A DNA stretch of 64,000 bases, from the NCBI GenBank assembly GCA_002269645.1, contig NIVC01000153.1, forward strand, positions 324,019-388,018, written 5' to 3'. Shown here one piece after another: positions 52,569 through 58,634 of this stretch. The notes under the pieces are model-generated. The model saw only the letters and a list, made by a program, of their open reading frames with translations, was not told the origin of the DNA and searched no databases. This DNA comes from Macrostomum lignano (lineage: Eukaryota). A program made the position numbers and the translations under genes. Within the stretch, counting starts at the first letter, position 1, and each line of letters starts with the position of its first letter.

Positions 52569-52839
52569 AGTAGTATAGAAAAAGACGCTTCTAGACCCAG
52601 AGCACTTTTTTAATGACCGTTTTAAGGGTCTAGAGGGGGGACACGGGGGGTAAATAAAAAAACACATCTAAACACCATTAATACATCTAATCACCCATAA
52701 TCACCCCTAACAATAAAAATCACTTCCCAACACTTCCAAACACTCCCCAACACTCCCCTCGCGTCCCCCCTCTTAAGACCTTACAAACGGCCATTAAAAT
52801 AAGGTCTGATCTAGAAGCGTCTTTTTCTCCACTACTACT
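52569..52839. repeat. Imperfect terminal inverted repeat / fold-back (about 85 bp arms; AGTAGT...ACTACTACT)
   Basis: AGAAAAAGACGCTTCTAGA (52577-52595) is the exact reverse complement of 52810-52828, and similarity extends inward. Confidence 0.85.
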
Positions 52840-52893
52840 CTATAACCCCTTGCCCGCGCCGCAGGCGCGAAGGGTCTTTTTCTGTTACTAAAA

Positions 52894-53459: not shown

Positions 53460-55069
53460 TTAGTTCGCAGACATTATCTGGTTCTCATAAAAAGAACCCA
53501 ATATTTCTTCACCATCCTTATCAGCAATTATATAGGTTGTAGGATTTGTATTTAAAACTTTACTGATGGTAAATTTCTCACTTATTTTCCAATATCCTTT
53601 TCTTCCCTTTTCAAACTTATCTTTCCATTTATAGATATAAACAGAATCACCAACCTTAAAACCTTTAGTTTTCTTTTTTTCAAAATCTCCAAAAGTAACC
53701 CTAACGTTTTCAGGATTGTTATAAGCTTGTTGAGGAGTCATCTTTATCGCCGAATGATATGAATTATTATAATCTTTCACTACGTCTGGTAATATTTTTA
53801 CCCATTTTTGGTTACCATTAAGACTAAACTGAAACCACAATTTCTTACCTAAAGTTCTATTAAATCTTTCTATTAATGCGTTTTTACTCTCTCCATAAAT
53901 AGAATAAATTTTATTAATATACTCCCCATTCGCGTCCTTTTTCCTTTCTTGTCCTTTTTCAAAATGGTATAATTTATACATATGAGGATTGTAAAATTCT
54001 TTTCCTTCGTCAACACACAACCTTTCACTTTTTTCTCCAAGACTTCTAAAAGCAGCAGCAACATCCTCTCCCTTTTTGGATTTTAAAGGAACAGCCCACG
54101 CGTATCGAGTAAAACCATCTAATATGGTTAAGATATATTTATATCCTCTTTCGTTCGGCATCGACATTAAATCAGCATACCAAATTTCATTCTTTTTGAA
54201 GTTCATGATTTTTCTATAAAATTTAGGTTTTCGATATTCTTTATGAAGAATCTTTGCCTCATCAGAACTTAACCCGCCGCCACTTAACAACAAACACTCA
54301 ACACAATTATTTCCATGTTGATTATAATTAATTCCTAAACCAAATTTAACTTTAGACTGCAAGATCTTTTTAACCATCCACCTAGTTAATTTTTGACCTA
54401 CCGATAATCCCTGCAAGTTATCTAATCCTTGAATCATTTTTTGATCGGCTTCATGTTTTAATCTTAATGCTTCCTCGGGTGTGTTCTTATCAGCATCTCT
54501 GTATGCTAAGTCATGATAGTATGCTAACCAATCAATTCCATTTATGGGAATTGAATCGGCTTTTGGGTGCCATCAGGATTTAATCTCAAATCTAAGCGAG
54601 TGCCGGGTAGTTTACCCTCAATCTTTCGAAAGAGGCTGGAGCACACCTTAAGCGGCGATAATTACCGCCCATCTCCGTCTGCTCTCTGAACCTTCTCCTT
54701 ATATTTAAAATACTTAGGAGCTTGGCTGCGCATTGCCACCGTGTCTTCAAGCTTTTTACCTTTGGGAAGAGGAGTTACCTCTGTTCCTTCAAAAGATTTC
54801 TCAATTGAAGTGGTACTTGAAGCAGTATGACGGGTTTCACGCAATTTGGAGATGTCGCCACAAATAGTGACTAGCAAGGACATTGCCTTCCTCACTCAGG
54901 CCACGGGTTAACCTGTGAAGTTCATTGATGGTAGGTGTAGTTCCCCTGTATATTTACCAGTAGTAAAGATTGGTGGTAAGCTTGTTAATCCTTTTTGAAC
55001 ATCTAACAATCCTCCTTCAAACACTATTTGATCGTTCCGAAGGAACGCGAACTTCGTTCGGTTGCTCAT
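53460..55069 (-). CDS. PLA2 (parvovirus-type) - rve/DDE integrase fusion, about 435 aa after splicing. Exon 1 55069-54911, exon 2 54607-53460 (one -1 frameshift at the GGG run near 54566)
   Basis: Spliced reading ELHLPSMNFTG|PGTRLDLRLNPDGT(P)KADSIPINGIDWLAYYHDLAY...HEAD...KVKFGLG, continuing in frame into WYADL..ILDGFTRYAWAVPL..CVDEGKEF..IERFNRTL and FKVGDSV..SFYE. Exon 2 length plus 1 nt is divisible by 3. Confidence 0.88.
54608..54910 (-). ncRNA. Group I intron, subgroup IC1 (303 nt, no internal ORF)
   Basis: P1 CAGGU/GCCUG with U.G at the 5' site; GCUAGUC..GGCGAC P2.1; P3 CAUCUCC/GGAGAUG; P4 UGCGUG/UGCGCA; P5a CUUCAAG/CUUGAAG with A-rich bulge; P5b GAAA loop; P5c; CCUAAG receptor; P7 G(A)GAGCA/UGCUCC; P8 GGCGGU/AUCGCC; J8/7 GCUUAAGGUG; P9. 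Removal restores the conserved FTGPGT. Confidence 0.93.
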
Positions 55070-55619
55070 TTTTAATAGCCATAAAAATACATGATAGCAC
55101 CAATTGTTTTGCAAACTCTTCAATGGTTGGTTGTTGAACTTTTTTATAGCGATTATCTACGCTAGTTAAGTATCTTTTATTTCTCCAATTTTCAGACTTT
55201 CTCATCTGGTCATTATTTTTGTAAGTAAATGAAGAAGCGGGGATCAAATGATCAATATCTAACTTTCCAGTATAATCTTTTGGCACATAATAATTTCTTG
55301 TGAAATTTAACCAATCAAAAAAGAATTCTTTTGTGCAACCAAGATAAGAGATATAGTCCTTGTCATTAAAATTTTTCAACGCCCAATTTATTCTATTTCT
55401 AATTAAAACAATATGTTTGTAATTATCATCAGTGTGATACTTATTTTTTCTATATTCATTCCATTTATCTTTATTGTTTTTTATCCAAATAGCAGATGAG
55501 GTATTATGACAAGATCGACAATCATTTCTAATTTTTTTTGAATCATTTCTCCAAAAATAAAATTCTTTCGTCATCGGTTTTTCTTGTTTACACTTAGTAC
55601 AAATCTTATTAGTTTCCAT
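55017..55619 (-). CDS. Free-standing HNH / endonuclease VII-like nuclease with N-terminal CxxC-CxxC zinc finger (200 aa)
   Basis: CTKC..CRSC; YLGCTKEFF; DIDHLIPASSF...NWRN..L..VDNRYK resembles the LGC..HIDHIIP..N..DN..K family of large-DNA-virus nucleases. Confidence 0.78.
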   Translation of the reverse strand: METNKICTKCKQEKPMTKEFYFWRNDSKKIRNDCRSCHNTSSAIWIKNNKDKWNEYRKNKYHTDDNYKHIVLIRNRINWALKNFNDKDYISYLGCTKEFFFDWLNFTRNYYVPKDYTGKLDIDHLIPASSFTYKNNDQMRKSENWRNKRYLTSVDNRYKKVQQPTIEEFAKQLVLSCIFMAIKNEQPNEVRVPSERSNSV

Positions 55620-55642: not shown

Positions 55643-56311
55643 TTAAACTCCTGTATGTCCAGCAGCTTTCGCAGCAGCTAAAACAAGTTTTCGCGGTGTT
55701 TTAAATCCATCACCAACAGCTGGTTTGTTATTTATAGAATTAACAATCCTTTTATACAAGCTGGTATTTTTAACACCTCCACCTCCTAACTCATCGTAAA
55801 AAATTCTAGCACTTATTAATTCATCCCTAGTATATAAATCAGGGTTAAATTTTACCCTAGGGTTCGTAATAATATTAAATGCTCCACCCAATTCTCTATA
55901 TAGTTCATTTCGATTTTTATCAACTCCACCAATTCGATAATTATTATTACCTAAATCTGTCGCAGCAATACTAGCTGGTACTCTTGGATATTGTTCCCGA
56001 TCGCCCCGCTCTGCACGTCTAATCTCTGCAATTCTCAATTGTGCTTGATCAACATCATAAGCAGGCGGCTCATCTAAAAGTTCATCCTCTTTTGGCTCAG
56101 TATTTTTAGCAATTTTTTCCAGAAGATCTTTATCTGTTTTTTCTAGTTCACTAATTTTCCCAGTAATAGGATTAACAAAAGGAGCAGCAAATCTTTCACC
56201 CGCTAATTGTATTCCTAACTTTCTTTTTTGTAAATTTCTAACAAAATCAGAATATCTTTGCTTCTCTTTATAAATCGCTAACTCTCCATCAACGTCCATA
56301 AATTGACTCAT
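55643..56311 (-). CDS. Viral hypothetical protein (222 aa), possibly the conserved Maverick core ORF with an N-terminal helical segment
   Basis: Intact ORF with AAAATG start. KLG.Q..E.F..PF..PIT motif is reminiscent of Maverick conserved ORFs (recollection, not verified). Confidence 0.6.
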   Translation of the reverse strand: MSQFMDVDGELAIYKEKQRYSDFVRNLQKRKLGIQLAGERFAAPFVNPITGKISELEKTDKDLLEKIAKNTEPKEDELLDEPPAYDVDQAQLRIAEIRRAERGDREQYPRVPASIAATDLGNNNYRIGGVDKNRNELYRELGGAFNIITNPRVKFNPDLYTRDELISARIFYDELGGGGVKNTSLYKRIVNSINNKPAVGDGFKTPRKLVLAAAKAAGHTGV

Positions 56312-56345: not shown

Positions 56346-57816
56346 ATGGCTGAAACAAAAACTATGTGGAGTGATAAATTTCATTTCAAAAAGCACCGAC
56401 AGTATATTAATGAGGTCAGAGCAAGAGATTTAAATTATACCCTACCAACAAGTGATAATTCAAATAACTTTACTACTGGAACGGTAACTTTTGACATCGG
56501 CGCAACCAACACTATATTGGATATGAAAAATGCGTTTTTCCGCGTTAGATGGTTGTATACTAGAAATGATGGAACTGCTCTTGCAGCCGGAGATATCGCA
56601 GATCGATCCGGAATAATAATAGAAAATGATTGGTTTTATAAATGTTTTTCCCAAGCTCAACTAACTGTTAATGGTGCTGAGGTTGAGACATCATCAAACC
56701 CCGCAGAGATTAATGGAGTTTTGAAACATTTAAATTATACTTATTTATCAAAACAAGTTGGTGATAATGTTGGGTGGATGCCGGATAAAGGTAACGGTCA
56801 AGCAGTAGTTTTCCCTAATGTACAAAACGCAGCCGGTGCAGATACTGCAGCGCTAATTGTTTACCTTAATACAAACATAGTTCCAGTTGTAACCACTATG
56901 ACTAATACAAAAGATATTAATACTGGTTTTATAGATCGTCAGAATAAATTCCCAGTCGCGGTTTTAACCACAGCAACAGCATATGAGCAGGACTTTTCAA
57001 TCTTTCCACTATTTGGGTTCTTCTCACCAAATCGGGTATGGAAAGGATTAAAATTTGGGATACAGTTGCAAATATCTGGTGGATATCAGCCTAGGATACT
57101 TTATGGAACCTCAATTTCAACCGATATAGCAGTTCGTATAGATTCAATTCAATTAGTCGTACCAACTATTGAGGTAACAGCCCCACTTTTAAAACACATC
57201 GATAATCAGTTAACGCATGATCAGGAAATATTTTATTTGAATCGTAGACACTTTATGCGAACCATTAATAACAATCAGGATTCATTCCAGTGGCAAATAC
57301 TGACATCAAAACGTCGGGTGAGATATATTTTTGTTTGGTTTAAATAACAAACAGAAGGAGTAAAAGAGCAAATGGGGATTTATATTGGCTTCAATCGGGT
57401 GACATAGCAGCACAAGCAGCTACCGCAACAGACAACGCAGTTGCTGCAATTAACGAGTTTAATGTTCAGAATATCCGCCTGCAGGTTGATGATCAATATT
57501 ATCCGGTTAAAGACCCCTAAATTTAAATATAGCAAATAATAATGTTAATGATTTTATAAAATATTATCAAGATTATGCCAAAAATGAAGCGTATGCCGTC
57601 CCTCAGTACACACCCACAGAGTTTCTAAACATTCATCCAGTGGTTGTTTATGATCTAACGGCACAGAAAGAAAACGTAGCCAATATTGGACTTAATTATA
57701 TGTTAGAGATTAATAAAACCGGTAATCAGGCACTTGACGCCCACGTATTGTTTCTAGAGGAATATATGTCAATTGCTAAAGCTGATGGCACGATTGTTCG
57801 GGACGCGCCACTTTAG
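56346..57816 (+). CDS. Major capsid protein (double jelly-roll, Polinton PY/hexon-like), about 490 aa; two -1 frameshifts near 57343 and 57515
   Basis: TFDI..TILD..FSQAQLTVNGAEVE..FPLFGF..IQLVVPTIE..RYIFVWF. Adding one base to each homopolymer extends the frame through NIRLQVDDQYYP..HPVVVYDL to the TAG at 57816. Confidence 0.82.
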
Positions 57817-57847
57817 TGTCGCACCTATTTAAATTATTTCTTTAAAA

Positions 57848-58634
57848 ATGGTAAAGGCAAAACACAATAAAATATTTCCAAATGATCCTTTTCTTTGTTT
57901 AGTAATCGGAGGATCAGGTAAAGGAAAAACACACTTTGTTTACGATTTATTAACAACAGATGGAATGTTAGACTATAATAATTTAATAATTTATACTAAT
58001 AAACCTAGAATAAAATATTATGAATTTCTTAAACATGGATTAAAAAACAAATTAAAAAAAGATGTCTTGTTTAGAATGTTAAGAGCATATGAGCAATATG
58101 AGGATGATGACGAACCGCGATTTAATCTAGCAGACATTGAGGATTTATGTAAAACAATGGCACAACAGCCAGAAAACATCACCGATCGCCCCGAAGGGTC
58201 GCGGACTTCGTCCGATCGAGCCCCAACTTAGAGTATCAACCGATTAGCTATGATCAAATTCCAAAAATGATAAAACACTAATTATTTTTGATGATTGTAT
58301 TAATGACGGTGATCAAGAATTGCAAAAGGAAATTTTTGTTAGTGGTAGAGGAGATGGAATTGGAGCTTTTTATCTAACACAGTCCTTTAGAGAATTAGAA
58401 TCGATTATAAAAAAGAATGCAAGTTGTTGTGTAATGTTTGATTTAGATAATTATGATTTACAAAATATACACGCTAGATTTAATCCCGGATTGGATGCAA
58501 AACCATTTAAAAGTATGTGTAAAAAAATTTGGGATGATAGCCAATACAAACATATTTATATCAATCCGAGGTTAGAAAGGAAAAATCGAATCTTAACAAA
58601 TTTGATAAAAGAAGATAATGAGGAAGAAGAATGA
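57848..58634 (+). CDS. A32/FtsK-like DNA packaging ATPase, about 262 aa; two -1 frameshifts near 58223 and 58265
   Basis: Walker A GGSGKGKT, Walker B LIIFDD (58279 region), TQS motif, ARFNP..HIYIN. Confidence 0.88.

Follow-up and report, generated by a model that had tools for sequence, protein, structure and literature searches.

Collaborative homing has been described for the free-standing endonuclease F-CphI and the psbA group I intron of cyanophage S-PM2 (PMC6083498, PMC3984707). F-CphI belongs to the DHHRN/Endo VII enzymes, which are defined by a central DHxH flanked by CX2-4C and CX2C, without a central Asn (PMC6083498). One review describes a model whereby the enzyme is at first free-standing and then enters the intron (PMC3984707). 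The predicted link from collaborative homing to composite mobile introns has, in the sources consulted, been argued from separate systems. As far as we found, collaborative homing has been demonstrated only in phages. For Polinton-related elements, the accessible text of two reports raises it as a hypothesis about helicases and replicases only (PMC11296320; bioRxiv 10.64898/2026.10.13.758929). Here, we describe a locus in Maverick elements of the animal Macrostomum lignano that resembles F-CphI and psbA in having a free-standing nuclease gene beside a group I intron without its own ORF, in this case in a PLA2-like gene. Unlike F-CphI, the Maverick nuclease is of predicted HNH (H-N-N) type, and its host element is integrated in an animal genome. 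The Maverick site also differs in having two exchangeable nucleases and two introns, and its cleavage is a prediction.

Bodo saltans virus provides a second comparison. Its RNA polymerase genes carry group I introns and HNH and GIY-YIG endonucleases, and its ORF-less introns are thought to home in trans (PMC5871332). The Maverick locus likewise combines a eukaryotic DNA virus, a structurally related HNH family, and ORF-less introns that would rely on a nuclease acting in trans. However, in the giant, cytoplasmic Bodo saltans virus the nuclease lies in another intron, whereas in the Maverick it is a free gene overlapping the start of its presumed target gene. Group I introns are also reported from Polinton-like viruses of cryptophytes, Paulinella, and Desmodesmus, and are described there as limited to few protist groups (PMC12220804). 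These too are RF00028 introns (~300 to 380 nt) in host-integrated Polinton-type elements, but they lie in an unannotated gene upstream of the capsid gene, without an identified partner nuclease, unlike the Maverick introns in PLA2.

A 2013 review places nuclear group I introns only in rRNA genes of eukaryotic microorganisms (PMC3679873), and a 2025 database describes animal group I introns as mostly mitochondrial, in placozoans, corals, and sponges (PMC11835236). Against this pattern, the introns reported here lie in a protein gene of elements integrated on an animal’s own contigs. Insertion of HNH domains into the PolB of Polintons has been described (bioRxiv 10.1101/2023.08.22.554363), and the word “intron” is absent from the accessible text of a coral polintovirus survey (PMC11131425). 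Our search of literature outside subscription journals turned up no account of animal Mavericks that carry group I introns.

The stretch of DNA analyzed (64,000 nt; hereafter, the window) is the end of contig C153, in a genome that we searched across 764 Mb and 5269 contigs. GC content falls from ~50% to ~34% past 52.5 kb of the window, and this low-GC part encodes an rve integrase (Pfam rve, E 6.8e-8). At least 12 other contigs carry PolB (PF03175) at a distance of ~9 to 10 kb from their HNH gene; there is none within the window, which stops at the contig end. On the basis of the integrase and the PolB of other copies, we identify the element as a Maverick/Polinton. It has the traits of the adintovirus type, namely an rve integrase, a protein-primed PolB, a PLA2-like gene, and multiple copies in an animal genome; adintoviruses typically carry PLA2-like genes (PMC8502044). 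The 86 Wnt matches in the genome mark it as that of an animal. Contigs C506 and C952 carry Wnt exons together with copies of the HNH element, which is therefore integrated and not a contaminant. Upstream of the nuclease gene, in nearly all copies, is a 222-aa gene of unassigned family (55643..56311, minus strand). Beyond it lie a probable capsid gene and an A32-like ATPase fragment (56346..58231, plus strand), the Pox_A32 match (E 0.004) being below the cut-off. The window includes one end of the Maverick. Near this left end, an inverted repeat of ~30 nt with AGTAGT-type ends, its arms ~240 nt apart (52569-52840), is probably part of a terminal repeat. Other PolB families were also seen in the genome (974 candidates, 91 scored), and these indicate further Maverick lineages.

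The PLA2-integrase gene lies on the minus strand. Exon 1 (54911..55069; 53 codons) ends in ...NFTG, and its first 53 nt overlap the 3′ end of the HNH gene in another frame. Exon 2 (53460..54607) encodes the PLA2 catalytic part (PGTRLDL...YYHDLAY; Phospholip_A2_4, E 0.001, below the cut-off) and runs into the rve integrase. The two parts form one frame in most copies (open frames of ~400 aa) and in intron-less copies of a sister subfamily; the frame of the window copy is broken near 54565. Integrase expression from the PLA2 start would thus depend on splicing. Across both exons, PLA2 and integrase make up a single frame of ~440 aa in both subfamilies (window 53460-55069), and an internal ATG at 54437 could bypass the need for splicing in integrase expression.

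Between the exons is a group I intron of 303 nt (54608..54910, minus strand), here termed type A. It matches Rfam RF00028 at 62.1 bits (gathering score 50), has a P1 with U-G at the 5′ splice site, the U belonging to the site itself, and has a P3-P9 core. Ten copies of the intron show compensatory changes at 6 of 86 predicted pairs, including pairs in P2 and P9. The P7 strands, read from sequence comparison, are 54684-54680 and 54643-54639 (within 54639..54684, minus strand). In P7, the type A and sister-subfamily introns differ by paired changes, with one G-C pair kept that we take to be the guanosine site (Tetrahymena numbering). The intron splits the GPG motif of the PLA2 domain. We place its 3′ boundary at 54608 from three natural intron-less copies (L037, L064, and L077) and not from Rfam, whose match ends 9 nt earlier. 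The G at the Rfam end (54617) is in frame as a splice site, but it would add three residues and break P9, and the intron-less copies favor 54608. As the preliminary description had it, the intron contains no nuclease ORF: the only frame of at least 40 aa is one of 73 aa across the ribozyme core. Long inserts in the introns of L100 and L049 were considered as nuclease genes and rejected, since they look like host insertions.

The last nucleotide of the window’s intron is A, not the usual G. Among 103 distinct copies of type A, 76 end in A and 27 in G. An exon 2 frame of 333 open codons is retained by 48 of 74 copies ending in A and by 15 of 27 ending in G, so the A-ending copies are not more decayed than the G-ending ones. 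A printed exception of the same kind, the ND5-717 intron of hexacoral mitochondria with its terminal A (PMC8146996), means that a terminal A does not remove the Maverick intron from group I. Both are group I introns in an animal with A in place of G, but ND5-717 is mitochondrial and fixed, while the Maverick intron is viral and nuclear-integrated, with A and G versions side by side. Contigs from four sequencing runs, whose RNA status is a guess (none is recorded as RNA), gave no splice joint at this site, and one contig reads through the unspliced intron.

Other copies have a second intron, type B, at the same 5′ site in PLA2 (L086:1725-2058; also L031, L050, L085-L095, L097, L100, L109, L135, L142-L145, L151, and L152). 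Its core is another one, while its periphery is held in common with type A (77% over 133 nt). An Rfam scan missed it, and we assign it to group I by eye, from its apparent P3 and P7. Its 3′ end is ambiguous, as each in-frame G would either lengthen the usual PLA2 motif by one residue or shorten it by one or two. Even so, 17 of 21 distinct type B copies have an open exon 2.

The HNH gene (55017..55619, minus strand) is a free-standing ORF of 200 aa located where the PLA2-integrase gene begins, a position that we call the nuclease slot. The preliminary description of this ORF, co-oriented with PLA2 and bearing CxxC..CxxC and DH...N...N motifs, holds. Paired CxxC motifs at 7/10 and 34/37 form an N-terminal zinc finger (residues 1 to 43), which is followed by a helical linker and a catalytic core with D123, H124, N147, and N156. 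The stop codon lies 106 nt upstream of the 5′ splice site of the PLA2 intron, as was also noted at the outset. The 53-nt overlap with PLA2 given there is correct for the window copy but is specific to a variant. In the commonest form, the PLA2 ATG lies 126 nt before the intron site and the overlap is 20 nt; in the window and some other copies, a hairpin-like in-frame insert (55031..55065, minus strand, bounds approximate; 33 nt net by comparison with contigs that lack it) extends these distances to 159 and 53 nt.

An AlphaFold2 model of the HNH protein built with an alignment (A1) reached a pLDDT of 93; folding from the single sequence gave 42 and was uninformative. The model has strands at 120-124 and 148-152 and a helix at 153-159. 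Its best PDB matches are HNH domains, individually weak (Foldseek E 0.056 and above; Z 4-6), and a profile search of PDB sequences also returned weak matches only. In a library of viral structures, 38 matches reached E 0.001 or better, among them Mimivirus L246 and, at E 5e-9, an “intron encoded endonuclease” of Bodo saltans virus. Pfam found no HNH match in the window protein and matched 3 of 103 homologs. In these 103 aligned homologs, H124 is kept in 102, N147 in 100, and N156 in 99. From the catalytic His, the central Asn, and the metal-binding residue, together with the modeled fold, we classify the ORF as a predicted HNH (beta-beta-alpha-metal) nuclease. The initial label “EndoVII-like” does not apply, and the kinship with F-CphI that it implied is not supported: DHxH occurs in 2 of 103 homologs and a CxxC after the catalytic DH in 1 of 103, so that the Endo VII signature is nearly absent, and the central Asn is present.

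Within the genome, 56 distinct long HNH ORFs all keep D123, N147, and N156, and 55 of them keep H124. Their dN/dS rises from 0.35 (core) through 0.47 (helical part) to 0.67 (zinc finger); for comparison, piN/piS of PLA2-integrase exon 2 is 0.08. The catalytic core of the HNH protein is under purifying selection. At the same time, the ORF is short and broken in 24 of 90 distinct copies with a findable start. A second HNH family, sought in the genome with a distant homolog, was not found.

A word-based homolog search with the HNH protein found nothing, while a full HMMER scan retrieved 1709 relatives at E 0.001 or better. The family is frequent in giant viruses and phages, where it is unannotated. 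In a giant-virus RNA polymerase gene (L189), a group I intron contains one relative of the same architecture (BLASTP 32% over 68 aa, E 2e-7). A close search of viral contigs gave no relative of the HNH protein, the Eco47II-like protein described below, or PLA2; closer alignment gave one phage HNH relative (L188), which adjoins a terminase and has no intron. A P1-like pattern matched 20 times in viral contigs and at no PLA2 locus; of the 19 matches scanned with Rfam, 2 (of the same sequence) are giant-virus introns. In L189 (2400-6300), the RNA polymerase gene is interrupted by three or more group I introns and by an insert that resembles an intein. One of these introns starts with nearly the P1 sequence of the Maverick intron, and another encodes the HNH relative.

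We find that the HNH gene and the introns co-occur, as would be expected if the two were partners. Searching the genome with HNH gave 131 matches, from which 109 loci were fetched; 4 have no PLA2 site, leaving 105 scorable. An intron is present at 102 of these (85 type A, 17 type B). The three intron-less copies are L037, L064, and L077; the first two have a full HNH with all catalytic residues intact, and the junction of L064 and L077 resembles that of some intron-bearing copies. We also scored 150 of 483 PLA2 candidates, loci being picked by nuclease or PLA2 matches. Forty PLA2 loci of the window’s subfamily have no HNH match. In 36 of these, the slot holds an ORF of 167 aa that is unrelated to HNH, and the other 4 are cut off or split. 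All 36 have an intron (29 type A, 7 type B). Thus, among 141 scorable loci of the subfamily (counts inflated by duplicated haplotigs; there are 128 distinct loci), the intron site is empty in 3 and the slot in none. Genes of both kinds begin after a common upstream motif and overlap the PLA2 start, and most of them stop 106 nt short of the site (55 of 66 full HNH ORFs, 11 of 17 full ORFs of the alternative kind). HNH variants differ most in their DNA-binding half, and the most divergent HNH type is paired with intron B at every scorable site.

The alternative slot protein and an intron-borne form of it match Eco47II family PF09553 (E 4e-4 and 7e-6; Atlas 0.93-0.94), which places it, by Pfam and Atlas, with putative PD-(D/E)xK nucleases of Eco47II type. 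A profile search of PDB sequences gave weak matches only. Unlike the restriction endonucleases of the Eco47II family, the Maverick gene is intron-encoded or beside an intron, with no methylase seen. No title on homing endonucleases of Eco47II type was among those listed by our literature search.

The intron-borne form comes from the sister subfamily. Genome-wide, Rfam detected 28 more introns, and 15 of the 16 fetched begin at the same PLA2 codon as intron A. The 13 with a resolvable 3′ end are 836 to 895 nt long and all finish in G. The sister-subfamily introns enclose an Eco47II-like ORF, 58 to 66% identical to the slot form, which sits between positions 43 and 51 of the intron and reads on into the ribozyme core. 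The same layout is found on a metagenome contig (L167), where an Eco47II-like gene lies inside a same-site intron. Among 24 database homologs of the Eco47II-like protein, a pattern flagged 11 with a similar intron-core tail. HNH was not found in the sister subfamily and was never found inside a PLA2 intron. The 20 intron-less copies of the sister subfamily share one junction haplotype, which differs from those of the intron-bearing copies, none of them matching the pattern exactly, and the 18 examined have neither an HNH nor an Eco47II-like gene upstream. This single haplotype is in keeping with a history in which susceptible alleles were converted and resistant ones persisted; common descent explains it too. 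Separately, a protein cluster in other assemblies (P0156; 30 members, contigs up to 65 kb) contains the intron-tailed Eco47II-like protein in multiple copies, which suggests amplification of the composite intron in another host.

We built an unrooted tree of 39 Eco47II-like proteins, leaving aside 7 short proteins as well as genome copies that were short or broken. All 15 free-slot copies group in a single clade (100/100), nested among intron-borne relatives. Such nesting would suggest that the Eco47II-like gene escaped from an intron, the reverse of the movement in the published model (PMC3984707), but with neither a root nor a clade test we claim no order of the free and intron-borne states. 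Because the gene occurs both free and inside a same-site intron, the free-standing and composite states of the collaborative-homing model are represented in one genome. The Eco47II-like gene is intron-borne at this site in the sister subfamily and on the metagenome contig, and a giant virus encodes an HNH relative within an intron, so it is very probable that the genes in the slot are those of homing endonucleases.

Maverick copies that are otherwise near-identical show local swapping of the slot and the intron. Even where their flanks are 99% identical, two copies can disagree in the slot gene only, in the intron only, or in the two together. L127 (Eco47II-like) and L003 (HNH) are 99% identical to the left, in the intron, and to the right, and differ in the slot; L031 and L009 differ in intron type and have 100% identical slots; L144 and L028 differ in both, with flanks 99 to 100% alike. 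Joint and separate swaps therefore both occur. When flanks match at 98% or more, 53 of 125 pairs have a different slot or intron; for a 700-nt integrase stretch taken as control, the figure is 7 of 168 (pairs are not independent). Mosaicism is nevertheless widespread, with at least one 105-nt window below 95% identity in 102 of 168 control pairs. Slot identities of ~0.77 to 0.83 between unrelated or distant genes reflect aligned columns only and were not used. We also looked for a peak of diversity at the intron site and set it aside as marginal: synonymous diversity just past the site (0.54) is the top of 40 windows, barely over others (0.50).

We consider collaborative homing the best reading of these data, and probably the correct one: the window’s HNH protein would be a free-standing homing endonuclease partnering a group I intron that lacks an ORF, with a target at the PLA2 site that we infer. 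Its strongest support is indirect: sister elements carry the alternative slot occupant, the putative Eco47II-like nuclease, within an intron at the same site. With two Maverick genomes in one nucleus, the HNH enzyme would nick or cut the intron-less PLA2 allele at or near the insertion site. Repair off the donor would then copy intron, exon 1, and nuclease together, and the donor would be immune because its intron splits the recognition site. Both slot nucleases would recognize the PLA2 insertion site, the two unrelated enzymes competing for the slot and introns A and B competing for the site. The intron would have to splice, mostly with a terminal A, to yield a one-piece PLA2-integrase. The two-component selfish system proposed in the preliminary description is supported by the HNH fold, the co-occurrence with the intron, purifying selection on the core, and localized swapping of slot and intron; its kinship with F-CphI/Endo VII is not supported. 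The preliminary description had missed the exchange between two nucleases, the second intron, and the frequent terminal A of the first. The complete picture is more tentative, and we rate it at slightly less than even: well over a hundred group I ribozymes in Mavericks of an animal nuclear genome, two unrelated homing endonucleases and two introns competing for one PLA2-integrase site, an Eco47II-like protein caught in both states, and a nuclease-free intron that largely gave up its terminal G and still splices.

The main rival, which we regard as considerably less probable, is that the HNH gene is selfish on its own account. Its target would be the PLA2 start, with the slot either empty or taken by the rival gene, or else some gene close by, and the intron would hitchhike by co-conversion or have been spread earlier by the Eco47II-like enzyme. 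Several observations would agree with such intronless homing: intron-less copies with an intact HNH exist, slot and intron can be swapped separately, the intron-borne form ties only the Eco47II-like gene to the site, and divergence concentrated in the DNA-binding half could mean that HNH variants have several targets. However, no empty slot was seen among the 141 scorable loci of the subfamily. HNH also takes the place of a nuclease that is intron-borne at this very site, with an equal stop position in most copies, and its most divergent type is accompanied by intron B at all sites that could be scored.

It is also conceivable, though unlikely, that the element keeps the nuclease as a domesticated weapon against competing Mavericks or a helper virus. 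The intron would then be self-immunity and spread by gene conversion a by-product. Interference of this kind has been proposed for the introns of Bodo saltans virus (PMC5871332), every scorable copy of the subfamily has a nuclease, and purifying selection persists on it with few sites left empty (3 of 141), a situation in which a purely selfish enzyme should decay. Yet more than a quarter of the distinct HNH copies are in fact short and broken, and the many sister copies without intron and nuclease show that neither part is essential. The target would moreover be the same as in collaborative homing, the two differing only in who benefits. An ordinary viral accessory nuclease (a resolvase or an enzyme for host-DNA degradation) or a relic, placed beside the intron by chance, is very improbable: the family is indeed common and unannotated in giant viruses and phages, with one phage relative adjoining a terminase without an intron, but the HNH gene is exchangeable with an unrelated nuclease that is intron-encoded at the same site, is absent from the sister subfamily, and has no Endo VII resolvase motif.

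If the complete picture is true, it would extend collaborative homing to an animal virus and provide a natural series for the assembly and disassembly of mobile introns. Homing would also imply that Maverick genomes meet and recombine in one nucleus. The locus supplies, as natural sequences, one nuclease in a free and in an intron-borne form, alleles that lack the intron, and one ribozyme ending in either A or G, so that questions of nuclease-intron assembly and collaborative homing become directly testable in vitro.

Two further features of the Maverick copies were seen. In L098 and L099 (G000:C87), HNH is followed by the reverse strand of a small basic, hydrophobic gene of virion type and not by PLA2, an arrangement that is probably a rearrangement. 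Short hairpin-like inserts (~30 nt, often in-frame) come and go in PLA2 exon 1 (window 55031-55065) and, within the introns, at two places in the P5 region and in P6 (L131, L107, L102, L158, L111, and L116); these may be tiny mobile hairpins.
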